A stretch of DNA of 32,000 nucleotides from Candidatus Saccharimonadota bacterium (lineage in GTDB: Bacteria > Patescibacteriota > Saccharimonadia > Saccharimonadales > UBA4665): the NCBI GenBank assembly GCA_963716945.1, contig OY970322.1, positions 150,001 to 182,000 of the forward strand, in the 5' to 3' direction. Below are positions 7,393 to 28,557 of this stretch, one piece after another. The stretch's first letter is position 1; each line of letters opens with the position of its first letter. Under the pieces are notes generated by a model. That model saw only the letters and a program-made list of their open reading frames with translations. It was not told the origin of the DNA and ran no database searches. A program made the position numbers and the translations under genes.

Positions 7393-7459
7393 AGCCCGGT
7401 TCCAGGCCTGGGTAAAGCCTGTGGGCGGCTTGTTGAAGGTTCGGTGCATAAAAACCGGT

Positions 7460-7660: not shown

Positions 7661-7669
7661 GAGGCAGGC

Positions 7670-8761: not shown

Positions 8762-8796
8762 ACCGCTTTCGGCGGCCGGCTACGTATAATACGTGT

Positions 8797-9854: not shown

Positions 9855-10532
9855 CTATTCGTTATTAGTCGGGCTGAGGAACGTAATCGTATATTTTGAC
9901 GGGTCAAAACCGACCTGCCTGATCCAGTTAAGCGCATCATTTTGGCCTTGGGTGCTGCTCGCCGTGATAACGATTACGAGCTTAGGTGCCGGACTGGAAT
10001 AATCGATTGTGTAATTAACCTGGAATTCGTTGCCGCCCCCCGAAAACGGTAATAATTGCACCAGGCCGTCGTTCTGAATTGCGTTATAACGAGCCTGGTT
10101 TGCCTCAAGCGCCTTTTGCTGGTCGGCCGGCAAGCTGCCCTCATTGATGGCCTGCGCCTGGAAGCTAAAGGTCTTATCCGGTAAACGAGCGCCCTTGGTA
10201 TCGCTAATATTACTCAGATGCACGCTATAAGTTTCCCCTTCCTGCAATTGCTTATTGAACGAAACCGTAATAACCGAACCGCTGACTGACGACGCCGCTG
10301 AAAGGTTTTGAGGGTACAGCGTTACCGACACGCTTTTAGACAAGGGCTTGCTGAAGTTAATTTTGAAAAACGGCGAGATAGTACCGACGGAGTTTACGGA
10401 GGGGTCGGTTCCGGTAATTCTAAAACTTACGGCCCGGTGTACCGAAAAAGCAATCCACATAACAACTATCAGCAACAGAAAAAGCAAAAATAAACGTACC
10501 AGTTTGACTAACCGCAACTCGTTTTGTTCCAT
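9855..10532 (-). CDS. Bitopic membrane protein with Ig-like (SbsA/Big_5-like) ectodomain; last gene of the T4SS-like operon
   Basis: 225-aa ORF with a single N-terminal TM (LFLLFLLLIVVMWIAFSV). This is followed by ITGTDPS...FKINFSKPL...GETYSVHLSNISDTKG, a pattern typical of bacterial Ig-like domains. It lies 13 nt downstream of the hydrolase gene. Its function is unknown. Confidence 0.6.
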   Translation of the reverse strand: MEQNELRLVKLVRLFLLFLLLIVVMWIAFSVHRAVSFRITGTDPSVNSVGTISPFFKINFSKPLSKSVSVTLYPQNLSAASSVSGSVITVSFNKQLQEGETYSVHLSNISDTKGARLPDKTFSFQAQAINEGSLPADQQKALEANQARYNAIQNDGLVQLLPFSGGGNEFQVNYTIDYSSPAPKLVIVITASSTQGQNDALNWIRQVGFDPSKYTITFLSPTNNE

Positions 10533-10545
10533 ATAATCCAGCCCC

Positions 10546-13125
10546 CTAGTCTAGCGACACGTAACCGGTTATGCCGTTACTATAATAACCGCTGCCTGTC
10601 TCGGTTGAAACTTTTGACTTGCCGGGATAGTTGGCCGGATCGGCGCCGGCGTCCTGGTCACCTCCTATATAGGTAGTCGTGGTGCCGGACACGGATACCA
10701 GGATATTGGTATGGCCGCCACCATAGACGGCTATATCTCCCGGCTGAGGCGTATAACCGTCCCCGTTGGTATGCCAGTGCATACCTTGCTGGCCGGCTTG
10801 CGCGTCGGTTTGCAGGGTCGGTACATACGATATCCGCCAGCTTGGCGACTGCAACGGACTGCCGGCCTGGTTATAAACCCAGCTGACGAAATCGGCGCAC
10901 CAAAGCTGGTTCTGGTTTTCGCTATATTTAGAAAAACTGTCAGCCGAATTTGCCCGGAAGCCGGGGGTCATTTGTCCGGAGTTCCATAAGGCCAGTTCCT
11001 GCTGGGCAATAGTAACTACCTGCTGCTGGATAGCCGACCCGCTGGCGCAGCCGGAGGTACTGGCCGGACTAATTGGGGTCGAAGGCCCCGGCGTCGACGC
11101 CGGCTGGCTGTTGTAGTAGTCATAGTACTTAAGGACTGCCGTTACATACCAGCTGGCATGGTTGTACGAAAATATAAAGCTGCTCCAAGTTGACTCCGGC
11201 TTGTCTTTGGTAGCGCCGTCGCTTTGGGCGTACTTAGCGGCTGCGTCGGCCGATGTGACCAGGTCGTTAATCTTCGAGATGTCGTAACCTAGGCCGGTAA
11301 ACGTGCTTGGCAGGAATTGGAAGGGCCCTTCGGCGCCGGAACTCGAACTGGCCCAGCCGGAATTTGGATCGGGCTGCCCTTTGACGAATCTCGCCCAGGC
11401 CGCCGGCAAGCTGCTCGTATTGGGGTCCGTTTCGCTGCCGCCTAGACCGTGCTCCTCTGAGAATAGGGCCGCCACCAGTGCCGGCGCGACGTTATGGTTA
11501 TTAGCGCCTTGGGTAAAGGCGCCATTATACGGTTCGGGGATGAAGCTGGGCAGCGTACCGGCCGGTACATTTTCGTTATTGCTTGAGCAGCAGCTGGTCC
11601 CCGCGGATGCGGCACCCGACTGGGAGTCGGAACTGCCCTGTACCGCACTGGCCAGGTCCGCGCTGCTGTTTTGAATGTCGGACTTGATTTGCGATGACGA
11701 GTCATCACCGTTAATGTAGACGCCGATTATATAGTCTTTGCCGTTGATCTTAAAGTCGCCGACATTGCCAGCTACGGTAGATGTGCCCGCCCACTTGTTA
11801 TATGCGTCGTTAACGCTGTAGTAATTGTCGTTCTGGGAGGCATACTGCAAGGCGTTCTGAGCGGTTCCGTAGTCGCCGCCGGAAGTACTCAATATATGGT
11901 TCATGGCATCGGCTTCATCGCCAATAGTACTTTTGTTGACGCCGTCATTAGCCGGCGAGTAATAGCCTTTGACGTCAGTGTGGGTGTAGCCGTAGGACTG
12001 GGCTTTTTGGGTAAATGCGTCCACGCCGCCCATCGCTTGCATGAGCACGTTCGCGCCGGTATTGCTTGAAATCTCAAATGTCAGCTGCATGGCATTCCTA
12101 AGGGTTGTAGTGTCGCCGGCTTTCAAGTCTTTTGGATTACCCGTAGAGTAAACCAGGCTGGGATCAACCCGGACTGTTTTGTCCAACGAAATACCGCTCC
12201 TCAAAAGCGTATCGACTATAATCAGCTTCATTGTTGATGCCGGCGTGCTGGGCGGCTGGTCAGACTGATAGCTGGCGATTGTATTGCCGCCTTGCTCTTC
12301 AATGATTGCCGATTGCAGGTTATATTTGGAAACTATCTGGGAAATGTCCAAGTTCCCGCTAACTGCCGGGGCCGGCGTAGCGGTCGATGTGCTGCCGGGG
12401 CAGCAACTGGGTTCATTGGCGGTACCCGCTGCGCTGGTGTCGGTAGCGGAGGCAGTGGGGTCGCTGGCCAGGCTGCCCGTATAAGGTTCTACTTTGGCGT
12501 TGGTAGCCGAAAACGTGTTTTTGGTGCCGTCCCCGGACCAGTCATAAACGTCGACGTGATGGCCGATGATCGCCCCGCCGGTATCGGCCGCCAGGAACGC
12601 TCCGTGCCAGCCGACGGCATTTGGCCAAACGGTTACCAGAGACCCGTAAGGTATGACGTGAGGGTCGACCGCAATTTCGTAACGCGGCAAGCCATGACTG
12701 TTATCAGGACCTTGCAAACTGAGGCCGGTAGACGTAACCCCGCCGCCCTCCAGCGCGCTCCAGGGCGGCCCGTAGGTCGTAGCCAGGAAGCCGCTGCCGC
12801 CGCCGAACGAACCGCCATGGGCGGCCGATTTAGCCTTGTCGATCTCTGCTTGGGTGAAGCCTGTTCCGGCCACGCCGCCAAGCGATTCACCGTTCTTTGG
12901 AGTACTGGAAGCCGTTGCTATAGGTGTAGATGTGCCGGTGCCGGTTGTCGTGGTATCGGTACTGGTCGACCCCGGCGACGAACACGGTTCATAAAAACAT
13001 GTCCCGGCGTCACCGCCCTGCTGAGCGCAGTCGAAGTCATTGGCCGTAAAAGCCGCCGCCTGCTCTGACACTAATAAAACTACCAGGCAAATCGGCACAA
13101 ATAATTTTAGGAGCAAACTTTTCAT
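10546..13125 (-). CDS. Secreted multi-module peptidoglycan hydrolase (3D domain + SxxK serine hydrolase + SLT lytic transglycosylase + CHAP)
   Basis: 859-aa ORF with a signal peptide (LVSEQAAA/F). aa 114-196 look like a 3D/MltA-like domain (IAVDPHVIPYGS...LAADTGGAIIGHHVDVYDW). aa 262-475 carry S297-T-M-K and S353-S-N motifs, as in penicillin-binding or beta-lactamase-fold proteins. aa 540-665 look like SLT (LFSEEHG, GAEGPFQFLPSTF, SYNHASWY). aa 700-859 look like CHAP (LWC743ADFVSWV, GGGH805TNIL). Confidence 0.85.
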   Translation of the reverse strand: MKSLLLKLFVPICLVVLLVSEQAAAFTANDFDCAQQGGDAGTCFYEPCSSPGSTSTDTTTTGTGTSTPIATASSTPKNGESLGGVAGTGFTQAEIDKAKSAAHGGSFGGGSGFLATTYGPPWSALEGGGVTSTGLSLQGPDNSHGLPRYEIAVDPHVIPYGSLVTVWPNAVGWHGAFLAADTGGAIIGHHVDVYDWSGDGTKNTFSATNAKVEPYTGSLASDPTASATDTSAAGTANEPSCCPGSTSTATPAPAVSGNLDISQIVSKYNLQSAIIEEQGGNTIASYQSDQPPSTPASTMKLIIVDTLLRSGISLDKTVRVDPSLVYSTGNPKDLKAGDTTTLRNAMQLTFEISSNTGANVLMQAMGGVDAFTQKAQSYGYTHTDVKGYYSPANDGVNKSTIGDEADAMNHILSTSGGDYGTAQNALQYASQNDNYYSVNDAYNKWAGTSTVAGNVGDFKINGKDYIIGVYINGDDSSSQIKSDIQNSSADLASAVQGSSDSQSGAASAGTSCCSSNNENVPAGTLPSFIPEPYNGAFTQGANNHNVAPALVAALFSEEHGLGGSETDPNTSSLPAAWARFVKGQPDPNSGWASSSSGAEGPFQFLPSTFTGLGYDISKINDLVTSADAAAKYAQSDGATKDKPESTWSSFIFSYNHASWYVTAVLKYYDYYNSQPASTPGPSTPISPASTSGCASGSAIQQQVVTIAQQELALWNSGQMTPGFRANSADSFSKYSENQNQLWCADFVSWVYNQAGSPLQSPSWRISYVPTLQTDAQAGQQGMHWHTNGDGYTPQPGDIAVYGGGHTNILVSVSGTTTTYIGGDQDAGADPANYPGKSKVSTETGSGYYSNGITGYVSLD

Positions 13126-13144
13126 TATCGTAAACCGGCAATCA

Positions 13145-16100
13145 TTAAGGCGCGGCCCTTATGTGTTGATGGGTGCAGGTATCGTTGAAAGTCGTAAACT
13201 TACTATTGTTCAGGACGGGATAAGTCGGGTGGCACTCTATTTGTCCGAACGAACCGCCGGTAGTAGACAGTAAAGCCGCCGCGTCGTTAACGAACTTTTC
13301 ATCTGATGCGGCTTCAGCTCCGGTAGCGCCGTTTTGAATCGAAAAGTCCGCTGACTGGCCGCAAGTATGGCCGGAGTAGGCATCGCAACCCTCTGACGAG
13401 TGGTTGCTGCAAATTGCCGATATGCCCAGTGTCCAGCCGTCGGTTTGGACCAAGCCTAGAATCAAGCCTAGAAGATGAGGAGTAAGAGCTCCCACTCCAC
13501 AGTTCCCGCCTATGGGTATGCCTTTGGCGGTGTTTTGGATATCTTGGCAGTCAGCCGGCCCGCTGCCGCCTGCGGCCGATCCGCAGACGATCTTCCCGCT
13601 GCTTATGAAAGGCAGTAGTTGTTGGGCCAAAGACTGGGAGCTGCCCGTGGGGAGTGAGCCGGCGCTTGCCGGTGGCGTCGTGTCGGCTACTGTCTCGGTA
13701 GCGCTTACGGTCTGCTCCTGGTTAAGCTGGTCCATAGTGTTCTTGTAGCCTTGTGCCACCCGCCAGCGGAAGACCAGGTCCGCCCAGCCGTGCCCGGTCG
13801 GCGACAAGCCGTCAACCGGCCCGGCATTGTCTATATTGGCGGTTCCCAGGTTTCTTGGCGAGCACAAGCCTTTGTCCGGGTTTACGTCGCCGTTGTCATC
13901 ACGAACGATATAGTATTCGCCGTCCGGCGCTTTTTGGGTCAACATGTCGCCGATAGACACGCTACCGTCGAAACAGGCGCCATATCTGGCGGCGATGGCG
14001 TTCTCTTGGCCGCTGGCATCAAGCGCCTCCTGGTTCTCTAGCGGGCCATAGCTCGGATCGGTGGCTATAAGCTGCTTTTCATAGGGGGTGAAGCCGAACT
14101 GGACGTTGCCGCAATAAGTATTGGCGCTGGTAACGGTCGCGGCCGCGAAAGCGCTGTGCGACATCAGCGGGCTGAGTATCGAGCCGATTGAACGGATGGG
14201 ATTGAGCAAAGCGCTGCCAATTTTTAGCGGCACAGTCCAAGCCGAGCTGCTGAAATAGCCACTGGACGCCATAGCCACGCGGCTGATTAACGAATCGGGG
14301 TTGTTGACCGAGGCATAGCGTTCCACGGCGCTCTGCTGGCTCTCGTTGTAGGTAAGCTGGCCTATGTTGCTAGCATTGTCGGCCGCTAAATTCTGGTCGG
14401 TCAACGGCGCCCCATAGAATTCTTGCTGCTCAATCTGGTTGGCATATAAATTAGTGCCGCAATCAAGCGTATTATCATAAGGCTCGCCGGTGGCCAGGCT
14501 ATTATGCGAAGCGCCGATTTTGCTAGCCACAATCGCCTTAGCTATCAAGGTCGCGCCGCCTATGAGCGCCACTTGCTTGCCCGTCTGGACCCCGAAGTCC
14601 TTGAGCTTGGAGCCGCCGCTGACGATTTTGCCGAGTGCCCTGCTGGCAAGAGACGGGACGGCTTCGTCGGCCGCGTTTTCGGCAGCCACCTCGCCGCCGG
14701 CCATGATGCCGCCGCCCTCGCCGCCTGTCAGGTAGCTGACTACGGCGCCAATGGCAATATTAGCCCCTCCCAAAGCTGCCCCTACCCATAAGTTAGTTAA
14801 TGCCGGACAGGCGCTGCCAAGGCTGGTGACCACGCTGTTAAGCGGTTCGGGTAACCCCGTCGCCAAAGAGTACTGCCCGGTTGCCGAAGCCTCGGAGGCC
14901 GGGAAAGAACTTGTGTCGACCGGGATGCCGCTGGCCCGTTCTTCAGGAAAAGACGTCGTAATGTCAGCCAGCTTATAGTCCAAAGCGCCATCAACTTCGC
15001 CGTTGGCGCTGTTGCCGTCTTTCAGCTGCGAAGCAGCCGACTGCATCCATAACGCGCTGCGTTCCATTTGGGTATTCTGGGTATTTATGGTCTGGCCGGC
15101 ATCAGGAGACGTAAGCGACCCGTCATAGACCAGGCACATCGGTACGGCTATCTTATAAAACGGGTTGATAAAGCCGACGATATCACTCAACAGGCCGGTC
15201 AAGCCCTGGGCCGAGTCCTTTATTCCATTAAGCACCGACTGTACCGAATCGGGCAACGAGTTAGGGTCGGGCAATATATTATTCTTAACTTGTCCCGCAT
15301 CGTTAACCTCGGCGGTTTCCGCGGCCTGGGCTTTTTGGGCTATTTCATCAACCGTTCCATTGGGGCTTCCGCTGACGCTGGTGGTGCTAGTGGTGTTGCC
15401 GCTGTTGGTTATGCTGGTCGCCGAACCCTCCTCAGCCGTATTATAGGCATCCTGCTCGATATTAACTTCGTCTTGGGTTTCATCTTTGCCGGCATAACGG
15501 CCGGCCACCCAAGCGACCAAACCGATATTAAGCTCCGAACGTATCTGGCTGGCGACGCGGGCCCTGGTAATCGGCCCGATACTATTGGCCTTAAGGGCGT
15601 CAATCAGGTCCGGGGCGAAATTACGGGAGAAGCTAAAGTCCTTGGTCACGAATTTGTAACCCGGTATAAGACTATTTTTAAGTGAATTCTGAAGCGACTT
15701 GGTCTCAAGGCCGGTCGTCAGGCTGGCCGTTTCGTTATTAATTGTGGCGCTTTTGATATAAGTCCTGCCTAATTTGGTAGTGCCCTCGTTGAATTTTAAA
15801 ATATTATCATTTTGAAAGTTAGATATTACCTTTCCGGGCCGGTAGTCGTCGAAACTGGACCACAAGTCTTTGGCCTGACCCGTGACGGCAGTGGCCTTGG
15901 CCTGGATTTTATCAAGCAGCTGTCCGGCCAGGCTTCTGTCGGTGGCTGAGGCCGCGGCATCCTCGCTCTCGGCTGCCAGCGCGTCGATACCCAGCTTTTC
16001 GTTGGTTATAGATTCGGTATCCTGGGTCATGGAGGCCGTGTTGCGGGCAAACTGATAATCAGCAATATGCTCCGTGAAATCAACGACCTTATACCCTCCG

Positions 16101-16579
16101 ATGATAACCGCCACCAAAATAATCATGCCGATTACGATGACGTTGCTGCCGATAGCGATACCGACCAGCCACTTGTTTTTGAAGGCCCGGGCCTTGACGT
16201 TTTGGGCCTTGGCGCGGGCCCGGCGCAATGGCGCCAGCCGTCCCTCGTCATCATCGGGGTTGTAGAGGTTGTCGTCATCATCCTTTTCCCTGGGATTTCT
16301 GCTGCCGGCCGATTGCTCGGAATCACGCAGGTCGCCCGGGCTGGCCGAGCGGCCGCTGCCCCTGCTCCTGCCGCTGTCAGACCGGCCGCCTTCGCCGGCC
16401 TCATCGGCGCCGTCAGCCCCGTCGCCTTCAGGGTTGTATAATCCGCCCTCCTCGGCGTCGCGCAAATCCTCGCGGGGCACACCGCTACTGTCGCCGCGTT
16501 CGTGGCCGACGCCCAAGTCAGGCCGAATATTCGGACGGTTGGCATCTCCTTGCGGAAGTTGGTCTGGTGGCTCTTCCAT
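13145..16579 (-). CDS. Large membrane-anchored protein with acidic repeat-containing N-terminal tail and C-terminal LAS-type zinc-peptidase-like domain
   Basis: 1144-aa ORF. aa 1-136 are charged and disordered, with a duplicated DLRD...LYNP unit. A TM lies at about aa 137-163 (WLVGIAIGSNVIVIGMIILVAVIIGG). A long S/T/G/A-rich region follows. The C-terminus has SGH1071TCGQSAD1078 (H-x6-D) and CTH1137QH1139 (H-x-H), as in M15 and DD-peptidase/hedgehog-fold metallopeptidases. The CDS itself is solid; the domain call is tentative. Confidence 0.6.
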   Translation of the reverse strand: MEEPPDQLPQGDANRPNIRPDLGVGHERGDSSGVPREDLRDAEEGGLYNPEGDGADGADEAGEGGRSDSGRSRGSGRSASPGDLRDSEQSAGSRNPREKDDDDNLYNPDDDEGRLAPLRRARAKAQNVKARAFKNKWLVGIAIGSNVIVIGMIILVAVIIGGYKVVDFTEHIADYQFARNTASMTQDTESITNEKLGIDALAAESEDAAASATDRSLAGQLLDKIQAKATAVTGQAKDLWSSFDDYRPGKVISNFQNDNILKFNEGTTKLGRTYIKSATINNETASLTTGLETKSLQNSLKNSLIPGYKFVTKDFSFSRNFAPDLIDALKANSIGPITRARVASQIRSELNIGLVAWVAGRYAGKDETQDEVNIEQDAYNTAEEGSATSITNSGNTTSTTSVSGSPNGTVDEIAQKAQAAETAEVNDAGQVKNNILPDPNSLPDSVQSVLNGIKDSAQGLTGLLSDIVGFINPFYKIAVPMCLVYDGSLTSPDAGQTINTQNTQMERSALWMQSAASQLKDGNSANGEVDGALDYKLADITTSFPEERASGIPVDTSSFPASEASATGQYSLATGLPEPLNSVVTSLGSACPALTNLWVGAALGGANIAIGAVVSYLTGGEGGGIMAGGEVAAENAADEAVPSLASRALGKIVSGGSKLKDFGVQTGKQVALIGGATLIAKAIVASKIGASHNSLATGEPYDNTLDCGTNLYANQIEQQEFYGAPLTDQNLAADNASNIGQLTYNESQQSAVERYASVNNPDSLISRVAMASSGYFSSSAWTVPLKIGSALLNPIRSIGSILSPLMSHSAFAAATVTSANTYCGNVQFGFTPYEKQLIATDPSYGPLENQEALDASGQENAIAARYGACFDGSVSIGDMLTQKAPDGEYYIVRDDNGDVNPDKGLCSPRNLGTANIDNAGPVDGLSPTGHGWADLVFRWRVAQGYKNTMDQLNQEQTVSATETVADTTPPASAGSLPTGSSQSLAQQLLPFISSGKIVCGSAAGGSGPADCQDIQNTAKGIPIGGNCGVGALTPHLLGLILGLVQTDGWTLGISAICSNHSSEGCDAYSGHTCGQSADFSIQNGATGAEAASDEKFVNDAAALLSTTGGSFGQIECHPTYPVLNNSKFTTFNDTCTHQHIRAAP

Positions 16580-16615: not shown

Positions 16616-18568
16616 TTATACGCTATCTGTACTGCCGGCGCTGCCGGGGTATAACCGGTTGCCGAGGTCGATTGTCCCTTGCGGCTGGCTGAAGTCCCCC
16701 GCTTCGTTGGCGGCCTCGGCCTCGATTGCCTGGACCTGTTCAGGGTTAGTCGTAATCAGGCCGGTTTCGGTCGGGCTGGCCACGACCTGGATATGGACGT
16801 GGTTTTGGCCGGCGAAAAACAGCCCCTGCCCGACGGGGAACTGGCTGAGGCGTTTGCGTTCCTCGCTGGTCAGCTTGAAGACTTCGGTCAGCACGTCGAC
16901 GGCCGTCGGCGACTGTTTCAGCAGGAACTGCATCGAGGCGTTGGCGACGATCGCCCGGCCCATCCGCGAACCCATGAAGTCCTCGACGTCCTGGCTGATA
17001 GTAGTGATGCCCAGGTTATATTTGCGGGCCCGCTTGGCCAGGCTGAACAGGAAGCTCGCCGAATCTTCATATTTCATAAGTTGCCAGGCCTCGTCGACGA
17101 TCAGGATACGGCGTTTCTGGTCGGTCTTCGTCTTGTTCCAAATGTAGTTGAGCACGATATACATGGCCACCGGCCGCAGCTCGTCCTCCAGGTCGCGCAG
17201 GTTAAAGACCACCAGCGGATTATTGATGTCGACGTTGCTCTGTTGCGAGAAGATACCGGCGAAAGTACCGGTGGTGTACTTGCGCAGCCGCTGGGCCAGT
17301 TGCGGCCCGGTACCGCCCATGTGCAGCAGCGTGTCATACAGGTCGACGATCGTCGGCGGTACGCCGGTGTGGGTCAGCGGGTCGTTGGTTATGCCGGCCT
17401 TGGCGTAGGTCTCGATCAGCGCCGCGTCGAGGTCGGCTTCTTCCGACGGCGCCAGCGGCGGCCCCATCGCGTTGGCGTTGGCGCCGGCCATCTGGATCTG
17501 GGCGCCGCCCATCATCAGGCGCAGCAGGCCGTGCAAAGTTATTAAGTTGCTTCTCAGGGCATTGTCGGCTTCTTCGGAGTCAACGACTTTTGGCAGGTCG
17601 AAGGGGTTAATACGAGTAGATGAATTCAAGCTCAGCCGGACATAGGCGCCGCCGACGGCGTCGCACATCCGCTCGTACTCGTTTTCGGGGTCGATAATAA
17701 AGATTTCGGTACCGAACATCATGCTCCGCAGGGCCTCCAGCTTAACCGTGAAGCTTTTGCCGGCGCCGGACTTCGCGAAGACCACCGAGTTGCCGTTTTC
17801 CAGCGAGAACCGGTCAAAAATGACCAGCCCCGAGTTGTGCATATTGATACCGTACAAAATCCCGTTGTCTTGGCTCAAGTCGGCGCTAGTGAACGGGAAG
17901 CTGGTGCTTAGCGCCCCGGTGCTCATGTTGCGTCGGATTTGCAATTGGTCGACCATTTGCGGCACCGTGCTGTTCAGGCCCTGCTCTTGCTGTGACGTCG
18001 CGGCCTTGCTGTAAACCAGCTGCTGTCCGAGCATCGACTCCACTTTGTGGGCCACGAACTCCAACTCTTCCATGCTGCCGGCATACAGCGTGAAGTACAG
18101 CCCGAACCGGAAGAAGCGCTCTTCGCCGACCTGCAGCTTGTCGCGCATTTCTTCGGCATCCTGGATCGCTGCTTCTTTGCCCGGGTCGCGGACCCGTCCC
18201 TTCTCGGCTTCGATTTGAATGCCGGCTTCCAGCTGGGTGACCTTCTTGCGCAAATTCTCGAGCACCACCTGGCTCTCGACAGGGTAAATGTACATGCTGA
18301 TATCAATCACTTCGTCCAGGTTGACCATGCTGCTCAGCCAGCCGGTATACAGCTGCCGGGGATAGCCGTAAACGTAGTAGGTCCGGGCATAACGCGTCCC
18401 GAGCTGGAAGTGGGTGTTGCTGAATTCCAGCGAACTGGGCGCTATGAAATCACGCAGCGCCGTAATCCCCTTCTGGAACGCCGCCTGAACCTCCTGTTCT
18501 TCGCGGGCGCGCTGGGCTTGGGCTACGGCTACCGGGTCCGGCGGCGGCTGTTTCTTCTTGCCGAACAT
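16616..18568 (-). CDS. virB4: VirB4/TraC/TrsE-family type IV secretion ATPase
   Basis: 650-aa ORF. Its N-terminal domain is VirB4-like (YARTYYVYGYPRQLYTGWLSSM). It has the Walker A FAKSGAGKSFT and the Walker B RRILIVDEAWQLM, followed by ARKYNLGITTISQDVEDF. Confidence 0.9.
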   Translation of the reverse strand: MFGKKKQPPPDPVAVAQAQRAREEQEVQAAFQKGITALRDFIAPSSLEFSNTHFQLGTRYARTYYVYGYPRQLYTGWLSSMVNLDEVIDISMYIYPVESQVVLENLRKKVTQLEAGIQIEAEKGRVRDPGKEAAIQDAEEMRDKLQVGEERFFRFGLYFTLYAGSMEELEFVAHKVESMLGQQLVYSKAATSQQEQGLNSTVPQMVDQLQIRRNMSTGALSTSFPFTSADLSQDNGILYGINMHNSGLVIFDRFSLENGNSVVFAKSGAGKSFTVKLEALRSMMFGTEIFIIDPENEYERMCDAVGGAYVRLSLNSSTRINPFDLPKVVDSEEADNALRSNLITLHGLLRLMMGGAQIQMAGANANAMGPPLAPSEEADLDAALIETYAKAGITNDPLTHTGVPPTIVDLYDTLLHMGGTGPQLAQRLRKYTTGTFAGIFSQQSNVDINNPLVVFNLRDLEDELRPVAMYIVLNYIWNKTKTDQKRRILIVDEAWQLMKYEDSASFLFSLAKRARKYNLGITTISQDVEDFMGSRMGRAIVANASMQFLLKQSPTAVDVLTEVFKLTSEERKRLSQFPVGQGLFFAGQNHVHIQVVASPTETGLITTNPEQVQAIEAEAANEAGDFSQPQGTIDLGNRLYPGSAGSTDSV

Positions 18569-18604: not shown

Positions 18605-19549
18605 TCATTGCAGCTCCCTCTGTAAGTGCGCTTGCGGCGCACTGCCCTGGCCTTTGGTAATGATATCGGCTGTCAGGTTGTTGAAATCCTTGAGCTGCTG
18701 CCGGGTGGCCGTATCCGGGTTATAGGTGTCGTAATACAGCTCGATCAGCTCCTGCGTGTCCAGCGGCAAGCCCTGTATGCTGCACTGCATCAAACCCGAC
18801 AGGACGGCCTGAACCCGGTTGCGCAACTCGGTTTTGGCATTTTCCAGGTCCGGCTCGTTGATAACGACATGCTGGTCTTTTTTGTTAAATAAACCGCCTA
18901 TGCCGCCCAGGAAATTCTTGCTTTGGGTCAGCGCCTTTTGCGTATCAACGACCGGGAAGAACGGGATCACGACGTAAAACTTCTTGTCCATGATGTTGGT
19001 CTGCTGACTAAGGTCGCCAATGTAGCCGATGTAGTCCTCCATAAGCAGTGCCAGCAGCATATTATCGTGCTCGGTGCGGATCTTATCGAGCTTGTTGATG
19101 TAGGGTGCCAGGTCGACTTTTTGCGAGCGCATGAAGATCTGGATCGGGAAATAAAGCGAGTTCAAAAACCCCTGGTAACTGTATTCGACCGCTTCTTGCT
19201 CCTGGCTGCTCATCAGGTCAAAGTTGATGCTCTTGACCATGACTACCGAACGGAACGACCCGTCGTTCATGATGACGATGCCGTCCCGAATTTCGGCAAT
19301 TTGCAAGGAGTTCTGAGTACTGTTGGGGTGCGGAGCCGGCTTGCCCGGCTTGTCGGCGCCCACCGTCGGCATGTTCAAGGGGGCCGGGGCGTTAGAGCCG
19401 TCAGGCGTGGTTACCGGCGCGATTGACTGCCCGGGTATCAGCGGTGACGGCAAAGGGGCGGCACTGACCGAGTCCGGCATGCCCACGGCCGGGGCGGCCG
19501 GCTGGTCGGGATTCGGCTGGTTTGGTGTCGTTTGTGTTGACGGATCCAT
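18605..19549 (-). CDS. Hypothetical protein; Pro-rich N-terminus followed by a VirB4 N-terminal-domain-like region with no ATPase motifs
   Basis: 314-aa ORF. aa 1-80 are P/A/S-rich. After that, IRDGIVIMNDGSFRSVVMVKSINFDLMSSQEQEAVEYSYQGFLNSLYFPIQIFMRS resembles the CagE/TrbE/VirB4 N-domain pattern. No Walker motifs are present. The resemblance was judged by eye only. Confidence 0.5.
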   Translation of the reverse strand: MDPSTQTTPNQPNPDQPAAPAVGMPDSVSAAPLPSPLIPGQSIAPVTTPDGSNAPAPLNMPTVGADKPGKPAPHPNSTQNSLQIAEIRDGIVIMNDGSFRSVVMVKSINFDLMSSQEQEAVEYSYQGFLNSLYFPIQIFMRSQKVDLAPYINKLDKIRTEHDNMLLALLMEDYIGYIGDLSQQTNIMDKKFYVVIPFFPVVDTQKALTQSKNFLGGIGGLFNKKDQHVVINEPDLENAKTELRNRVQAVLSGLMQCSIQGLPLDTQELIELYYDTYNPDTATRQQLKDFNNLTADIITKGQGSAPQAHLQRELQ

Positions 19550-19608
19550 GTACGTTCGTTTGCCCCACCTTTATCTGTGACTGAACATCACTTTTTGCAA
19601 ATAACGAA

Positions 19609-20769
19609 TCAGTGTAATGAAATCATCACCTCGTTGCGCGGCTGATTTTCATCACCCCTGTTTTTCTGGGCCTCGCGAGCCAAAGTTGCCACATTAAGAT
19701 CGTCGTTCTTGGCCAAAGATATTATAGCAGGGTCACTGGTCGCTGTCACCGCAGGGCCTTGGGTGCCGGCCGCCGTTGGGGGCTGGGCGCCATCGTCGGC
19801 CCGGGCCGTTGTCGCCGGGGCGGCAGACGGCTGTACCGACACCGGGCTACCCAGGGGTTGGAGCGTACGCAAATTGCCGAATGACACCTGCCGTGAACTG
19901 GCTTGGGCCGCCAACCGGGCCGCCAGCTCGGCTTCTTCCGGCGTCGAATCGGCCGCTGCCGGAACCGGCGGAGCTGCCTGAACCGGAACCGCCGCTACTA
20001 CTGGCGGCTGCACCGGCACCGCCATAGCCGGTCCGCCGGCCGCTGCCGGAACCGCAGCCTGGACGTTATTCATGAACCAGTTGTTGCCGGCTCCGCCGGT
20101 CTGCTTGGCCGCCTCGTCCCGCCGCACATCGTTAAGCTGGTCGATGAGTTGTTGTCGATGATTGCGGCTTGAACGGTCGATCATGGTGTTAAACTGCTGG
20201 GCAATCGGGTTGTTGGTTTCGTCCAGCATGTCATCGGCGGCCGGCATGTCGTCCGCCGGCACTTCTTGAGGAATACTGCCGATGTCGATTAGGCGGTCCG
20301 AGTCAGTATCGGCGACTACAGGTGCGTAGATGCCGTCGCCGACGTTCTTAGTTGCCCAGCCGCGGCTATCGATAGTATCGGCCAGTGCCCGTAACCGGCT
20401 CTTTACCTCGGTTTGGCTAAGCCCGTTTGTCAGCACCCGCTCGACTTTCTTAGGCACCGTAATAGTTACCAGCTCCTTGACGCCACTCTGGTTCCAGATC
20501 CGCCGCCGGGGCTTGAACCAAAACCGCAGCTTAGCCAGCGCCCAAGTTTCGGTCGGCTGGTCCCGCCCGAACGGAAAGGCAAAAAACGCGCAAAACAAAG
20601 CCGGCGGCAAAAACAGCACCAGCAAAAACGCCACATGCTTAGTTACCAGGATAAAACAGATGTAGAACAGAAATACGGCAACCAGTGCGAAGATAAACTG
20701 CCGCAGCGTCAGCGGCCCCAGGATTTTGTCCTCAGCCTCGATATCCTGAATCAGTTTGTATGTTGCCAC
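19609..20769 (-). CDS. PrgI/VirB3-like two-TM T4SS membrane protein with a long C-terminal extension
   Basis: 386-aa ORF with a GTG start. The N-terminus IQDIEAEDKILGPLTLRQFIFALVAVFLFYICFILV plus a second TM match the PrgI-family pattern of Gram-positive T4SSs. The C-terminal ~300 aa include an Ala/Pro/Val-rich tract. Confidence 0.65.
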   Translation of the reverse strand: MATYKLIQDIEAEDKILGPLTLRQFIFALVAVFLFYICFILVTKHVAFLLVLFLPPALFCAFFAFPFGRDQPTETWALAKLRFWFKPRRRIWNQSGVKELVTITVPKKVERVLTNGLSQTEVKSRLRALADTIDSRGWATKNVGDGIYAPVVADTDSDRLIDIGSIPQEVPADDMPAADDMLDETNNPIAQQFNTMIDRSSRNHRQQLIDQLNDVRRDEAAKQTGGAGNNWFMNNVQAAVPAAAGGPAMAVPVQPPVVAAVPVQAAPPVPAAADSTPEEAELAARLAAQASSRQVSFGNLRTLQPLGSPVSVQPSAAPATTARADDGAQPPTAAGTQGPAVTATSDPAIISLAKNDDLNVATLAREAQKNRGDENQPRNEVMISLH

Positions 20770-22689: not shown

Positions 22690-25600
22690 TTACTGATGGT
22701 GGGCGGCGTCTTCTTGGGCTTTCCTGGCTTGTTCGGCCGCGTCCTGCTGTTGTTTGGCTTGCTCTCTCGGGTCGTAGCTTCTCGGTTCCGGCAGCGGGAC
22801 GCCTTCTTTGCGAAGCTCTTCGGCCATGTCGCTCCACTCGGCCTTGGCGCCGGTGTCGTTGTAGCCGTAGGGGCCAGCCTGGTTGACGATAAGGTCTTGC
22901 ATGGTCCGGGCCTCCGCCGTGTAGTTGCCCTGGGCGTCTTTCTCTCTGGCGATAGCCATGTTGGTCAGGCGGGCCGATTGGACGGCTTCGGCCTTGGCGC
23001 CGGTCCAGTCGGATGCCTTGATGCTCATGGCGTTGGACTTGGCAGCAGCCGACTCCGGCCTGTCGAAGACGGAGTAGAAACTGCCCTTCTTGCCGGTGGC
23101 TTTGCCGGTCATGTCGACCATGACGCCATGACCCCACCTGGTCTCAGGCCTTAGACGGGCGCCGGCATCGGAAGCTTTCTTGACGACGCTCTGGGCGTAA
23201 GAGTGGCCGCCGCCTTTGCCCTTGCGCGCGGCGATGGAGTTGCCGATCTCGGCCAGGTCGTTGGTTTCGGCGCGTCCGGCATTAGCTAAGCCGAGCGCAC
23301 CCATTGTCTGAATATCGGCTCGGAAGAGCTCGGGGTTGTTGCTGATATTGGCCAAAGTACCACGGGCGGTGTGGAGGCCGGCTGCCGCCAGCTGCTCCTT
23401 TTCCTTGTCGCTGCTTGCTAGGATCTCAGTAATTTTGTCAATGTCCTTGAGTGACCTAGGAGCTCTTGCAACGCCTGTTTCTTTGTCAATAAAGCCTTCG
23501 TTTATAAGTGCTTGCTGGGTGTCCTGGCTGAAACCACGATACGAACCTGACAATGCACGCCAAGCTTCGTAGTGCATGCCGCCCTTGGACTCGATTTCCT
23601 GCCAGCCCTTGGTGCTGTGGTCGATCATGGCGTCGTCGATCTTGTTCTCTATGCCGGCCGCGAAGCGCTTGAAGCCGGGCGTGCCCTTTTGGCCGAGTTT
23701 GCCGGGCACCATTTCATCGGCATCGAAGGCCCATTCGGCCATTCGGCTGCCGATCCTGCCGATACTCCGGCCCTTATTGCCGAAGCGGCCGAATTCGGGG
23801 TTCCACAAGTAGCCGGCCCGGGCGCGCTGGATACGGCCGGCTGTGTGTTCTTTGCGCTTCTTGCTCAAGAAGCCGTAGCCGCCTTGGGCGCGGCTATTGA
23901 CCAGGTTGGCCATGCCGCTTAAGGCGCCGCCGGCAAACCGGAAAGTCATCGGAATCATTAAATAAGGCGCGAAGTAAGCTATAAAACCGATTATCTGGCT
24001 CAAGATATCGCTGCTCTGGTTGACGGCGATAGCCGAAAATACCCGCCCGGCGGCGATGAAACCGGCGATTAGCGGGAACATCAATAGGGCCTTGCTGAGG
24101 GATTCCCACCAGAGCTTGAAGACCCTCTGGGTATTGGGGTTAGGCAATATGTAGGCGGCCAAACCGATAGGCGCCAGGATGATCAGCATGATAATGGCTA
24201 TCTGCCGCAAAATCAGGGTTGCGAAACCGACCAGTACCGCCAGGGCGGCCATGCCGACAAAAGTCAGTAAACCGAATACGCCCATAGCAACGCCCACGAT
24301 GGTGGGGATTAAGACCGCGCCGCTTTGCGCCAAACTGAGATGGATGCTGGTATTGATGCCGACGAAGGGCTGCTCGATCAGGTATCTTATGCCGAAGCCC
24401 AAGTCATTCGTCAGTGTCACGAAGAAATCCATCAGCTGCCAAGACAAAGCGATGCCGATGGTCGCTATCAACAGCCTCGGCAACACCTTGCGAATCGTAT
24501 AGGCGTCCAATATTTCAAGGCCGAGGGCCTGGGCTATCAAGACTAGCAAAGTAGCCATGGCTATCAGGCCGAGCGCGATGTCGCGGAAGTGCGACCAAGC
24601 CGTTTTATAGGCGTCACATTGGCCGCCCGTGCCGCAAGAACCGTTGCTATCGGCAAATATTTGATTGGGGTCATCCGAATTGCCGTTGGTACCTACGGAA
24701 AGCTGGCTGTTAATTGCGTCGTCAAGGGCGCTGACTATGCCGACCAGGCCTTTGACGATACCGCAGATCAGCCAGTTCAACGGGTTAAGACCGGCATGGC
24801 AACTTAATGACAGGTCCTGGCTGGGGTTGCTGGCCGCGCCGGCCCCGCCGACGGGGCTGCTGCCCGGCGCCTCGTCGCTGGCCAGTTTACCGTCGGCACC
24901 TTTCGGATCGCCTATCTGGATAGGGATGCTGCCACTCTGATAACAGCCCTGCCCGTCGCTGCTAAGTGTCGCGCCGGTAATATTGGATGGGAAACCGGTC
25001 GATAGAGGATTGTCGCTGGAGCTGTTTTTGATAACCAGGGTTCCGTCCGCCGGCCAGCCCGAGGCTCCCGTAATCTGGCTTTGGCAGGTACTGTTGTAGC
25101 TTCTGCCGCTGGTGGCGAGGTAAGGGTCGCTGCCCGGGCTGCTCTGCGTGAAGACTATAGCCGTTTGGTCCGAAGTGCTGATGGTGCCGCTGTCCTGCCA
25201 GGTAAAGTAATAGTTAAAGCCTGCCGGGTCGGAATCGGGACTCAAGGTTATCGGGTCGTCGGTTTCAATACAATTATTATTGCCCCCGCCGGGAATGCTG
25301 AAGAGATGGATGGTGGCCGTCGCCGTGGCGTTCTGATAGTTGGAGCCGTCCGAGTTGGGGAAACCGTTAATGTAGTTCTTGGATGTGCAGCTGTCGCTTG
25401 CGTTCTGGATTTTGAAGTTCAGGTCATTGTCTTCTTTGTTATCGTAGTAGGTATCGCTGCCGACAGTGATGTGGCTGTGGTCGACCCACTGGCCGGTCTG
25501 TTTGGGCTGAGGGTTGTTGATGGTTATGGCGCCGTAGCGCGTCACGCCCAAAAGGCCGCCGCAATCGGCTTCGATAGTCGCCGCCGAAGAGCCGTCTTTG

Positions 25601-25893
25601 TGGTCATCGGTATAGATATATAGTTCCGGACAACCGTTGCCGTCCGGCCCTAGCGAGCCGTTGCCGTTGAAGTAAACGCCGGTGGGATACTTCTTGGTGT
25701 CGACGCCTTTCTTGGTGTAGGTCAGGGTGCTGCTGGTATCGGCCGGGTCGGGGCCGATGACCGCCTGGTTGCCGTCGGTGTAGCGGTACGTGCCGTTTAC
25801 GGCTGCGGTTTTTGCCGGCCAAAAAGAGGACAATAAGACTATTGCCAAAGGCAAGGCCGCCAACCAGAGTTTCTTGTCGCTCATATGTTTCAT
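22690..25893 (-). CDS. VirB6/TrbL-like polytopic channel protein with large N-terminal ectodomain and C-terminal extension
   Basis: 1067-aa ORF. It has a signal peptide (LPLAIVLLSSFWPAKTAA/V) and a ~400-aa Cys-containing secreted region. At least 5 TM helices lie at about aa 437-655 (LIAMATLLVLIAQALG, LLIATIGIALSWQLMDFFV, AIIMLIILAPIGLAAYIL, and others), as in TrbL/VirB6. A ~400-aa hydrophilic C-terminus follows. Confidence 0.7.
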   Translation of the reverse strand: MKHMSDKKLWLAALPLAIVLLSSFWPAKTAAVNGTYRYTDGNQAVIGPDPADTSSTLTYTKKGVDTKKYPTGVYFNGNGSLGPDGNGCPELYIYTDDHKDGSSAATIEADCGGLLGVTRYGAITINNPQPKQTGQWVDHSHITVGSDTYYDNKEDNDLNFKIQNASDSCTSKNYINGFPNSDGSNYQNATATATIHLFSIPGGGNNNCIETDDPITLSPDSDPAGFNYYFTWQDSGTISTSDQTAIVFTQSSPGSDPYLATSGRSYNSTCQSQITGASGWPADGTLVIKNSSSDNPLSTGFPSNITGATLSSDGQGCYQSGSIPIQIGDPKGADGKLASDEAPGSSPVGGAGAASNPSQDLSLSCHAGLNPLNWLICGIVKGLVGIVSALDDAINSQLSVGTNGNSDDPNQIFADSNGSCGTGGQCDAYKTAWSHFRDIALGLIAMATLLVLIAQALGLEILDAYTIRKVLPRLLIATIGIALSWQLMDFFVTLTNDLGFGIRYLIEQPFVGINTSIHLSLAQSGAVLIPTIVGVAMGVFGLLTFVGMAALAVLVGFATLILRQIAIIMLIILAPIGLAAYILPNPNTQRVFKLWWESLSKALLMFPLIAGFIAAGRVFSAIAVNQSSDILSQIIGFIAYFAPYLMIPMTFRFAGGALSGMANLVNSRAQGGYGFLSKKRKEHTAGRIQRARAGYLWNPEFGRFGNKGRSIGRIGSRMAEWAFDADEMVPGKLGQKGTPGFKRFAAGIENKIDDAMIDHSTKGWQEIESKGGMHYEAWRALSGSYRGFSQDTQQALINEGFIDKETGVARAPRSLKDIDKITEILASSDKEKEQLAAAGLHTARGTLANISNNPELFRADIQTMGALGLANAGRAETNDLAEIGNSIAARKGKGGGHSYAQSVVKKASDAGARLRPETRWGHGVMVDMTGKATGKKGSFYSVFDRPESAAAKSNAMSIKASDWTGAKAEAVQSARLTNMAIAREKDAQGNYTAEARTMQDLIVNQAGPYGYNDTGAKAEWSDMAEELRKEGVPLPEPRSYDPREQAKQQQDAAEQARKAQEDAAHHQ

Positions 25894-26081: not shown

Positions 26082-26882
26082 ATGAACATTACAACACACA
26101 AAGCCAAAAAAATAATCAGGAAAGTCAGCGGTCCGCTGGCCGGTTTCCTGGCTGCCGTGTTCATCTTGGCGCCATCGGTAGCCCTGGCCGCATCGCAGGT
26201 GTATGGCATAGCCTGCGCCAACAGTGACGTCAAGGTCAGCACCCACTCCGCGGCCTGTGCCGATAAGTCGGCAACCCTCAGGCTGTATGAGATCGGCAAC
26301 AAAAACCCTGAGAAACCCTACCCCTCCGGCTACGGCATAACGGTAGTAACGGTTGATTGCGGCAGCAGCAGTCCGACTACCCCCCTGCTGAACGGCCCCG
26401 TCAAGTTTAGTTGCAAGAAATCATCAATCAAGCCGACGCTCAAAGGCGCCACGATCATCCAGCATGCCGGCTCGGTCAGTCCCAGCGGCAGCCTTGGCGG
26501 CCAAGTCACCTGTGACCCGACGACCGATGCTACCTGCCCGGTTTGCCAGAGCAGCAATCCGCCGTCCGGCTGTGTCGACTGCAGCAACGGCACCTGTTCG
26601 GACCCGGCGGCCAACCCGGACGTTTCCTGCAGCGATAACGGCTGTGATTTGATATCCAAGTATCTTGACCCGTTTATTAACCTGTTCTCGGTGACCTTCG
26701 GTTTTATAGCCGTAGCCTCTATTATTATGGGGGGTATTCAATACGCGTCCTCGACCGGCGATCCGCAAAAGGTGACGGCGGCCAAACAACGTATTACCAA
26801 TACCCTGATCGCCTTAGTGGCTTATTTCTTCCTTTACGGCTTCCTGCAGTTCTTGATACCGGGAGGCGCATTTAACAGATGA
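26082..26882 (+). CDS. T4SS pilin-like protein 1 (VirB2/TrbC-like C-terminal module fused to a Cys-rich ectodomain)
   Basis: 266-aa ORF with a signal peptide (ILAPSVALA/AS). A ~190-aa region carries many Cys (...TCDPTTDATCPVCQSSNPPSGCVDCSNGTCSDPAANPDVSCSDNGCD). The C-terminus is helix-loop-helix: FGFIAVASIIMGGIQYASSTGDPQKVTAAKQRITNTLIALVAYFFLYGF. Confidence 0.7.
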   Translation: MNITTHKAKKIIRKVSGPLAGFLAAVFILAPSVALAASQVYGIACANSDVKVSTHSAACADKSATLRLYEIGNKNPEKPYPSGYGITVVTVDCGSSSPTTPLLNGPVKFSCKKSSIKPTLKGATIIQHAGSVSPSGSLGGQVTCDPTTDATCPVCQSSNPPSGCVDCSNGTCSDPAANPDVSCSDNGCDLISKYLDPFINLFSVTFGFIAVASIIMGGIQYASSTGDPQKVTAAKQRITNTLIALVAYFFLYGFLQFLIPGGAFNR

Positions 26883-26889
26883 GAAACCA

Positions 26890-27276
26890 ATGCTAAATAC
26901 ACTGTTATCAATCGTGGCAACGGATGCTTGCGACAAGTCCGGCGACTTCTTCGGCCTGCTGCCCTGGTACCATTACTTGCCGCCGGGTGATTTCAGCGGC
27001 TGCGACCTGGTTAACTTCAACTTCCTGCCAAGCTCTAGCGTAGCCAGCGACGTGCCGCTGGTGATGTTGGCGGTTATCGATGATTTGTTGCGTATAGCCG
27101 GCATCGTGGCGATTGCTTTCGTCATCGTCGGGTCGGTAAGATACATAACCAGCCAGGGCAATCCGGAGCAGACGGCCCAGGCCCAGTCAACTATTATTAA
27201 CGCTTTGATCGGCACGGCCATAGCTATAGCGGCCGCGACCTTTGTCGGCTTCGTCGGCAGCCAGTTGGGAGGTTAG
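26890..27276 (+). CDS. T4SS pilin-like protein 2
   Basis: 128-aa ORF with the C-terminal module AGIVAIAFVIVGSVRYITSQGNPEQTAQAQSTIINALIGTAIAIAAATFV. The N-terminal part has 2 Cys and LLPWYHYLPP. Confidence 0.7.
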   Translation: MLNTLLSIVATDACDKSGDFFGLLPWYHYLPPGDFSGCDLVNFNFLPSSSVASDVPLVMLAVIDDLLRIAGIVAIAFVIVGSVRYITSQGNPEQTAQAQSTIINALIGTAIAIAAATFVGFVGSQLGG

Positions 27277-27277
27277 A

Positions 27278-27592
27278 ATGGGAATTATTTTTCGGATCTT
27301 GGCAGAATCGGTAAGCGCCGGTAACCTGCCGGGAGCACCTACGCCGGCGGATCCCAACCCCGTCAGCCTGACCAGCGTGGCCGCTTTGCAAACCATCCTG
27401 GGCGTAGTCTTCGGTATAATCGGGGCCCTGGCGCTCCTGATCATAACGGTTTCCGGACTTCGCTATATAACTTCGGCCGGCGATCCGGAAAAGACGACCA
27501 GGGCCAGAAACGGTATCATCTATGCTCTCATTGGCCTGGTTTTGGCCATATCGGCCGAGGCGATAGTATCATTCGGAGTTAACCGGCTATGA
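27278..27592 (+). CDS. T4SS pilin-like protein 3
   Basis: I place the start at ATG 27278 (104 aa), preceded by GGGAGG and lying just after the upstream stop. The track's start at 27242 is less likely. The module is FGIIGALALLIITVSGLRYITSAGDPEKTTRARNGIIYALIGLVLAISAEAIV. Confidence 0.7.
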   Translation: MGIIFRILAESVSAGNLPGAPTPADPNPVSLTSVAALQTILGVVFGIIGALALLIITVSGLRYITSAGDPEKTTRARNGIIYALIGLVLAISAEAIVSFGVNRL

Positions 27593-28032: not shown

Positions 28033-28042
28033 AGGAGAGACT

Positions 28043-28483: not shown

Positions 28484-28498
28484 GGAGCTTCAGGTTAC

Positions 28499-28527
28499 TT
28501 GATTCCGCTAAAGCCTTGTAGTATAAG
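28499..28527 (+). promoter_or_regulatory. Possible internal promoter ahead of pilin-like gene 6
   Basis: TTGATT (28499-28504)-N17-TATAAG (28522-28527) lies in the only sizeable gap (74 nt) of the pilin array. Confidence 0.35.
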
Positions 28528-28557
28528 TTAAGTAGACTTAAAGAAAGGTTTAGAGAA

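Follow-up and report, generated by a model that had tools for sequence, protein, structure and literature searches.

The 32,000-nucleotide stretch of DNA analysed here (hereafter the window), taken from assembly GCA_963716945.1 of Candidatus Saccharimonadota bacterium (UBA4665; contig OY970322.1, positions 150,001-182,000), harbours an operon for a type IV secretion system (T4SS), within which a four-module peptidoglycan hydrolase of 859 amino acids is encoded. The open reading frame (ORF) of this hydrolase, designated g2 of the T4SS locus, occupies 10546..13125 on the minus strand and opens with ATG, as described in an earlier note on this DNA, and an identical protein (P0001) is present on a 1.10-Mb NCBI contig. 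The plus strand carries dnaA, dnaN and recF (recF-dnaN-dnaA, 5995-9852), directly followed by the minus-strand T4SS operon (9855-25893), with rnpA, yidC and jag on the other side. Since the operon abuts recF-dnaN-dnaA, the locus lies at the presumed replication origin, and this arrangement was kept in all long relatives examined; the named relatives all belong to Candidatus Saccharimonadales/Saccharibacteria. Read from the recF side, the operon encodes a 225-aa Ig-like protein, the hydrolase, a 1144-aa protein (g1), a VirB4-like protein, a TraC-like protein, PrgI, a 586-aa protein and TrbL_3. The T4SS association proposed in the earlier note was thus borne out, in that the hydrolase gene sits inside a cluster with VirB4, VirB3/PrgI and VirB6-like genes.

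The hydrolase consists of a signal peptide and four independently folded modules carried on Ser/Thr/Gly/Pro linkers, and its modules cover both glycan and peptide bonds. The signal peptide, residues 1-25 (MKSLLLKLFVPICLVVLLVSEQAAA, cleavage before F; 13051..13125, minus strand), was read directly from the sequence; its n-region is basic, its core hydrophobic and its cleavage site A-x-A-like. All motifs listed in the earlier note were located at the residues it gave, including DTGGAIIGHHVDVYD at residues 181-195, STMK at 297-300, SSN at 353-355, FSEEHG at 555-560, GPFQFLPSTF at 600-609, C743 and H805. Domain annotation placed three families above their Pfam gathering cut-offs (3D, Beta-lactamase2 and CHAP), enough to pass the refutation threshold of three distinct families set in the earlier note, and the proposal of four distinct wall-cleaving modules held, with catalytic residues that align with the family active sites and are near-invariant in relatives across all four modules. 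Relative to the 89%-identical orthologue in the relative locus L002, the ratio of nonsynonymous to synonymous substitution rates (dN/dS) was 0.03, 0.04, 0.03 and 0.07 for the 3D, serine, SLT and CHAP modules, respectively, whereas the two longer linkers reached 0.13-0.27; all these values are approximate owing to a dS near saturation (about 1). No module has the look of a decaying domain, and each of them is under purifying selection.

Module 1 (residues 86-225; 12451..12870, minus strand) was assigned by Pfam and alignment to the 3D domain, a double-psi β-barrel lytic transglycosylase of the MltA/YuiC type. The Pfam 3D family (PF06725) matched residues 151-204 with 45.8 bits against a gathering cut-off of 23.8, the region was alignable to MltA (7esj) and YuiC (4wjt), and the Asp trio that gives the family its name (D154, D181 and D192) was kept in 23/23 relatives. 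Both YuiC and MltA share with module 1 the same three catalytic-site Asp residues and the same β-barrel core motifs (ADP...ADTGGAI.G..D.Y). They differ from it in setting, and neither is linked to a T4SS: YuiC is a stand-alone protein of the stationary phase or of sporulation, and MltA is a lipoprotein of diderms that has a second domain.

At the other end of the protein, module 4 (residues 695-859; 10549..11043, minus strand) was identified from Pfam and conservation as a CHAP cysteine amidase/endopeptidase with C743, H805 and D823. The CHAP family (PF05257) matched residues 739-818 with 35.9 bits (gathering cut-off 26), and C743 and H805 were each conserved in 66/67 relatives, with D823 present as D or N in 67/67. 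A phmmer search of the module against the PDB gave no match.

Module 3 (residues 520-680; 11086..11568, minus strand) scored below the cut-offs when searched as a single sequence against Pfam (SLT 13.7 versus 21.3 bits; SLT_2 12.8 versus 24.3), hence the fourth module needed separate proof. A phmmer search of residues 520-680 against 5.8 billion proteins retrieved a Rubrobacter 'lytic murein transglycosylase' with SLT_2 and SLT (E=2e-6) and a second protein with both domains (E=7e-4). A ten-sequence profile of the module matched the crystal structures of Escherichia coli Slt35/MltB with E=2.8e-11, a score raised by the inclusion in the profile of both of these bona fide SLT_2 proteins, and it placed E558 on the Glu of 'GVETRWG'. 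The structure prediction suggested in the earlier note was carried out with AlphaFold2 (AF2) on residues 515-690, for which the predicted local distance difference test score (pLDDT) was 85.4 and the predicted template-modelling score (pTM) 0.83, and the fold obtained was that of a lytic transglycosylase. The top 50 Foldseek matches in the PDB were exclusively lytic transglycosylases (Slt35, SltB1-3, Slt70, MltF, MltE and MltC), with a probability of about 1, a template-modelling score (TM) of about 0.5 and modest E-values (4e-3 and weaker).

The features of family 3 are all present in module 3, namely a lysozyme-like fold, a Glu that ends the first core helix, G-x-x-Q-F-x-P-x-T (GPFQFLPST, residues 600-608) and Y-N (residues 654-655), and the module was assigned as the core of an MltB/Slt35-type (SLT_2, family 3) lytic transglycosylase. 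An insertion of about 30 residues separates the catalytic helix from the GPFQFLPST motif of this core. The predicted catalytic Glu is E558, found in 39/39 relatives; E557, which the earlier note had offered alongside it, was kept in 25/39 and was dropped as a candidate.

Module 2 (residues 255-500; 11626..12363, minus strand) was recognised from Pfam, an alignment with TEM-1 and an AF2 model searched with Foldseek as a serine hydrolase of the class-A β-lactamase/PBP-A fold. Beta-lactamase2 matched residues 282-442 with 51.1 bits against a gathering cut-off of 22, and a profile search against the PDB also supported the class-A fold. In the TEM-1 alignment, S297-T-M-K300 fell on S70-x-x-K73 and S353-S-N355 on S130-D-N132, whilst the position of Glu166 was occupied by Y389 (Y or F in 72/74 relatives), the equivalent of Asn170 was retained as N397, and the third box read K444-W-A-G in place of KTG (K-W-[A/G]-G among relatives). 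The residues S297, K300, S353, N355 and K444 were essentially invariant over 69-74 relatives (S297/K300 in 69/69, S353 in 73/73 and K444 in 71/72). The AF2 model (pLDDT 93.9, pTM 0.92) superposed over its full length on GES, TLA, LRA-5, PBP-A (2j9o) and Rv2911 with TM values of 0.69-0.79; PBP-A gave 0.78-0.79 along with the top identity (19-20%), and Rv2911 gave 0.69.

Although SxxK and SxN are present, a true class A β-lactamase was rejected on the Glu166 position, the KTG box and the NCBIfam cut-off, bla_class_A being the best NCBIfam match of the module yet scoring 39.7 bits where 200 are required. On alignment and model, module 2 is best described as a PBP-A-like serine enzyme of class-A fold and not as a β-lactamase, and by analogy with what is established for this fold it most likely acts as a DD-endo/carboxypeptidase. 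The label 'serine hydrolase' given in the earlier note was right, with the bond that it cleaves deduced from the fold. The PBP-A of Thermosynechococcus (2j9o), the Rv2911/DacB-like DD-peptidases and the LRA-5 'precursor' β-lactamase share the fold, the SxxK and SxN motifs and the lack of Glu at 166; they are, however, stand-alone enzymes of own-wall metabolism with K-T/S-G, whereas module 2 carries K-W-A/G and is a single bead of a lytic enzyme linked to a T4SS. The literature searched contained no account of a secretion-system hydrolase that had taken up a domain of class-A β-lactamase fold for use as a lytic DD-peptidase. A β-lactamase-fold serine enzyme inside a secretion-linked lytic protein bears on the re-use of PBP and β-lactamase folds, and surveys of metagenomes could mistakenly count multi-module lytic proteins of this kind among resistance genes. 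Public labels on relatives of module 2 (P0006, P0013 and P0020) include 'serine hydrolase', 'Beta-lactamase enzyme family' and 'D-alanyl-D-alanine carboxypeptidase'.

The variability of this position in the operon was examined with VirB4 as an unbiased anchor, by extracting the two genes downstream of it from 80 loci of different Saccharimonadales species in which VirB4 was 83-92% identical. The slot between virB4/g1 and recF was strictly conserved in every locus examined, and the second gene after virB4 always encoded a wall hydrolase, ranging in length from 390 to 1052 aa. Across 67 species with VirB4 in this identity range, the slot drew on about 20 wall-enzyme Pfam families; the scan covered 68 slot proteins, with Phage_lysozyme2 in 41, Amidase_3 in 12, GDSL and NlpC/P60 in 11 each, M23 in 10, CHAP in nine, SLT_2 in eight, C39_2 in seven, and GH3, Glucosaminidase, Amidase_2 and SLT in four each. 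The 3D domain was present in 3/68 and Beta-lactamase2 in 2/68, and several further families occurred once. Other slot proteins stack three or four modules, for instance GDSL, Phage_lysozyme2, Amidase_3 and NlpC/P60 in L063, and GH3, lysozyme and C39_2 in L042, which ruled out four-module stacking as a unique property of the window hydrolase. The view that four activities in one protein are unusual accordingly stands in relation to the two-module hydrolases of monoderm T4SSs and fails within the lineage, where three to four modules are ordinary; it is the particular set that is unusual.

That set was not recovered elsewhere: when 1.84 billion representatives clustered at 50% identity were searched exhaustively with HMMER, only the query's own cluster covered all four modules. 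Amongst 174 related proteins, none had three of the four modules and 22 had two, the commonest pair being SLT and CHAP in proteins of mostly about 440 aa. The hydrolase reads as a lineage-specific fusion of 3D, Beta-lactamase2 and an SLT-CHAP unit. A plasmid or phage origin was considered and discarded, as tblastn searches of 72,556 plasmids and 50,697 phages returned only weak single-module matches, for CHAP in Tsukamurella and Nocardia and for 3D in Listeria and Bacillus phages.

A gene-by-gene comparison of the window with three relatives set this turnover against the rest of the locus. Identities were 75-79% for DnaA, 80-84% for DnaN, 66-71% for RecF, 88-89% for VirB4, 61-75% for the TraC-like protein and 52-57% for PrgI, and fell to 17-19% for the hydrolase, with one module in common, and to 0-11% for the 1144-aa protein. 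The 225-aa and 586-aa proteins had no detectable similarity to their positional counterparts at VirB4 identities of 88-89%. On these comparisons, the locus encodes a conserved machine accompanied by rapidly exchanged extracellular, envelope-directed enzymes.

The 1144-aa protein encoded by g1 (13145..16579, minus strand), located between the VirB4-like gene and the hydrolase, shares this behaviour. Its C-terminal domain (about residues 990-1144; 13148..13612, minus strand) bears the motif signature of a LAS/M15-like zinc peptidase, comprising H1071-x2-G-x3-D1078 and C-x-H-x-H1139, which were invariant in 15 relatives. Pfam searches of the window g1 protein and of its C-terminus gave no match, and the putative assignment of the C-terminus to the LAS fold is based on these motifs together with the annotation published for its positional counterpart in strain ML1, SEML1_0007 (see below). 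The domain was common to 17/79 g1 proteins. Across 77 species, the last 350 residues of g1 matched VanY (14), M23 (6), CHAP, GDSL and an endonuclease/phosphatase fold (3 each) and Amidase_2 (2), and the other C-terminal enzymes included GDPD, M14 and tyrosine phosphatases. The g1 protein behaves like a polymorphic effector, whose C-terminal ~200-350 residues are swapped between species.

The linkers of the hydrolase carry Cys residues, as had been pointed out, and their placement proved to be a family-wide pattern. The Cys-bearing linker motifs lie at residues 47-56 (PCSSPGSTST), 241-248 (CCPGSTST), 511-515 (SCCSS) and 691-697 (SGCASGS). The earlier suggestion that the PGSTST linkers are duplicated was not upheld, the two having six low-complexity residues in common and no repeat at the DNA level, where only short chance matches occur within the ORF. 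On the minus strand, a single Cys precedes module 1 (C48; 12982..12984), doublets lie between modules 1 and 2 (C241-C242; 12400..12405) and modules 2 and 3 (C512-C513; 11587..11592), and a single Cys lies between modules 3 and 4 (C693; 11047..11049), so that together with the catalytic C743 the Cys residues of the protein are 48, 241-242, 512-513, 693 and 743. The recurrent layout is a lone Cys after the signal peptide, doublets at the inner junctions, a lone Cys before the last module, and the catalytic Cys. Comparable series are found at 67, 435-436 and 648-649 in L017 and at 55, 420-421, 611 and 654 in L041, and the layout is also present in L005, L006, L007, L010, L012, L018, L045, L063 and L087, despite unrelated modules.

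Statistical comparisons across the slot proteins pointed in the same direction. Half (50%) of the 464 Cys residues in the 68 slot proteins lay in a Ser/Thr/Gly/Pro/Ala/Asn-rich context, which takes in 21% of residues overall (p≈2e-42). CC dipeptides numbered 22 against 5.7 expected, and only 6/97 Cys residues fell inside Pfam-matched stretches, though these make up 44% of the length. A crude grouping by linker context recovered a strict 1-(2)n-1 pattern in only 22/68 slot proteins, because many first Cys residues lie outside an S/T-rich context. The better test is based on module boundaries: 14/24 modules were flanked on each side by a Cys no more than 50 residues away, whereas 3.8±1.8 would be expected by chance (0/5000 permutations). 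A layout of Cys-flanked modules is exactly what would be expected if each module were closed by a disulfide, and the first three modules of the window hydrolase are probably closed in this way, by C48-C241, C242-C512 and C513-C693. No description of such a disulfide-closed layout in slot hydrolases was found in the literature searched.

A multi-module wall hydrolase in the T4SS locus of Saccharibacteria is already known. In Candidatus Southlakia epibionticum ML1, the essential T4SS locus spans SEML1_0006-0019 (Wang et al. 2023, Cell; PMC10633639), and SEML1_0006 (643 aa), annotated as Lysozyme-like, Lysozyme-like and Cysteine proteinase, was scored 'ES' (essential, here for epibiotic growth) by transposon sequencing; the C-terminus of SEML1_0007 has a Hedgehog/DD-peptidase fold, and SEML1_0005 is an exported Ig/PEGA protein (PMC10633639). 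The gene order around SEML1_0006 is that of the window (virB4, a ~1100-aa protein, the hydrolase, a small exported Ig-like protein and recF-dnaN-dnaA), and SEML1_0006 is likewise a secreted multi-module hydrolase that ends in a Cys peptidase, from the same phylum and with an essential T4SS locus. Its modules, however, are of the glucosaminidase and phage-tail-lysozyme types followed by the Cys proteinase, without 3D, β-lactamase-fold or SLT_2 modules, and the window hydrolase has at most the C-terminal Cys-peptidase class in common with it.

Amongst the hydrolases of monoderm conjugative T4SSs, a two-module SLT and CHAP plan is usual, and VirB1 profile matches rarely adjoin virB4 in most classes of Patescibacteria, in which other hydrolases may fill the role (PMC12102498). 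The TraG(pIP501)/TcpG/CwlT-type enzymes (SLT or muramidase with CHAP or NlpC/P60) have a plan that is reproduced by residues 520-859 of the window hydrolase, amongst the closest relatives of which are ten stand-alone SLT and CHAP proteins, most of about 440 aa; a further pair of catalytic modules at its N-terminal end sets the window hydrolase apart from these types. PrgK of Enterococcus faecalis pCF10 (LytM, SLT and CHAP) is a monoderm T4SS-operon hydrolase with more than two domains and with SLT and CHAP in the same order, yet it is membrane-anchored and plasmid-encoded and has neither a 3D nor a serine-hydrolase module. Of its three predicted hydrolase domains, the LytM site is degenerate and SLT alone was active in vitro, as a muramidase (PMC11323569), whereas in the window hydrolase all four predicted catalytic sites are intact and conserved and the SLT is of MltB/SLT_2 type. 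What is new here is the module set, especially the β-lactamase-fold enzyme and 3D, the hypervariability of the slot beside a conserved machine, and the pattern of Cys residues at the junctions.

Saccharibacteria and other Patescibacteria live as obligate episymbionts and cannot grow on the host without their T4SS. The reading that we favour, with a probability of roughly 60%, is that the hydrolase is the wall-hydrolase component, functionally equivalent to VirB1, of a chromosomal monoderm-type T4SS, and that the host wall is among its targets. The protein would first be exported by the Sec pathway, after which its two transglycosylases of different fold would cut glycan strands, while peptide stems or cross-links would fall to the serine module, most likely acting as a DD-endo/carboxypeptidase, and to CHAP, in the role of amidase or endopeptidase. 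The hydrolase would be joined in this work by the LAS-type peptidase that ends g1, and together they would open the peptidoglycan locally, making way for the T4SS and its VirB2-like pilus. The wall that is cut would include that of the host bacterium at the site of attachment, with the module set matched to the chemistry of the host wall. Among close relatives the chemistry of their own walls should be alike, whereas the hosts, which are Actinobacteria in the cultivated cases, differ widely in theirs. Turnover of modules in close relatives alongside a conserved machine therefore suggests that the target most likely includes the host wall, and the proposal in the earlier note that the enzyme acts on a foreign wall is plausible in that it fits these comparative data.

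More tentatively, it is possible that g1 and g2 together form a polymorphic 'wall-breaching cassette', by which the range of host walls that can be opened is set or limited, in which disulfide-closed beads are exchanged according to a C-[module]-CC-[module]-CC-[module]-C grammar and into which a β-lactamase-fold domain was recruited as a lytic DD-peptidase. A conserved machine with exchanged wall-cutting modules provides a concrete and testable candidate determinant of host range, and the slot amounts to a library, made by nature, in which some 20 enzyme families take the form of exchangeable, probably disulfide-closed beads. The value of the finding would lie less in the four modules than in the slot as a host-wall-matching cassette.

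Several considerations weigh against the favoured reading. The non-enzymatic surface proteins of 225 and 586 aa are hypervariable too, hence a general diversification of the surface, for instance under pressure from phages or antagonists, could drive the pattern in place of matching to host walls. The missing Glu166 and the KWA in place of KTG leave the substrate of the serine module uncertain, and the precedent of PrgK, in which two of three domains are inactive, calls for caution in reading activity from domain content (PMC11323569). The signal peptide may be cleaved or may serve as a signal anchor, the dN/dS values carry the saturation of dS noted above, and the activity of the modules, the target wall and release from the cell are deduced from sequence and models.

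The most serious rival, though we regard it as unlikely, is a classical VirB1/PrgK role alone, in which the hydrolase remodels the cell's own wall for assembly of the T4SS and pilus and the turnover of modules is neutral or is not driven by host walls. The operon position matches that of PrgK, TraG(pIP501) and CwlT-type hydrolases (PMC12102498), the Pfam scan contained no recognisable foreign-wall targeting or wall-binding domain, and the essentiality in ML1 is equally explained by failed T4SS assembly. The own walls of the relatives should be alike, however, yet about 20 enzyme families occupy the slot and the C-terminus of g1 is swapped as well, and four or five activities with two glycan cleavers seem excessive for a gap in one thin wall.

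Both remaining explanations are less likely than a role confined to the own wall, and each is improbable. Were the enzyme to harvest nutrients, host or environmental peptidoglycan would be digested to muropeptides, amino sugars and amino acids, and the link to the T4SS would be one of co-regulation only. This would suit the lack of de novo synthesis of many building blocks in Saccharibacteria (PMC10633639), the presence in some slot proteins of GH3 (NagZ-like exo-glucosaminidase), which is typical of muropeptide processing, and a Sec-exported hydrolase that has no obvious need of a T4SS; it sits poorly with the strict conservation of the slot inside the T4SS operon in all loci examined, with lytic transglycosylases that yield anhydro-muropeptides in a window in which no uptake or recycling genes were seen, and with a 2026 preprint that reports depleted muropeptide catabolism in another Patescibacterium. 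A non-lytic module 2, whether a genuine β-lactamase directed against actinobacterial antibiotics or a silent stem-peptide-binding or regulatory domain comparable to the LytM and CHAP of PrgK, would account for the class-A β-lactamases amongst its best fold matches and for bla_class_A as its best NCBIfam match, and has a precedent in the regulatory pseudo-enzymes of PrgK (PMC11323569), but is opposed in its first form by the NCBIfam shortfall and by Tyr at Glu166 with KWA, which argue against efficient deacylation of β-lactams, in its second by active-site residues that are essentially invariant at a dN/dS of 0.04, and also by the DD-peptidases PBP-A and Rv2911 amongst the closest structures by identity and TM.

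The remaining genes of the operon, all on the minus strand, are those of the T4SS machine and of its surface proteins. The VirB4-like T4SS ATPase (16616..18568), with a TraG P-loop and AAA_10, was 83-97% identical over 80+ Saccharimonadales loci. The TraC-like (314 aa) and PrgI/VirB3-like (386 aa) genes lie at 18605..20769, the gene for the 586-aa protein at 20816-22576, and that for the TrbL_3/VirB6-like membrane protein of 1067 aa, identified by Pfam on the identical locus L001, at 22690..25893. Downstream of the hydrolase, 9855..10532 encodes the 225-aa exported Ig-like (Big_5) protein, a hypervariable counterpart of SEML1_0005 (PEGA/Ig).

Six VirB2-like T4SS pilin genes are arrayed on the plus strand at 26082..29022, encoding proteins of 266, 128, 116, 147, 146 and 154 aa, each with a C-terminal hydrophobic pilin core and several with Cys-rich N-terminal parts. 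An essential pilin array has been reported for S. epibionticum, which the six-gene array of the window matches. A tRNA scan of the window found none.

No clear Shine-Dalgarno motif is present in the 19-nt spacer that separates the g1 stop codon from the ATG of the hydrolase (13126-13144, TGATTGCCGGTTTACGATA). Several relatives have g1 and g2 overlapping by at least 4 nt, which suggests translational coupling. A small conserved gene of 88-92 aa with no Pfam match was also observed between dnaA and dnaN in relatives, sharing a few bases with the end of dnaA; it lies at about 7385-7660 (plus strand) in the window, and at 15472-15741 in L001, 15468-15737 in L002, 16316-16582 in L005 and 16588-16866 in L007.

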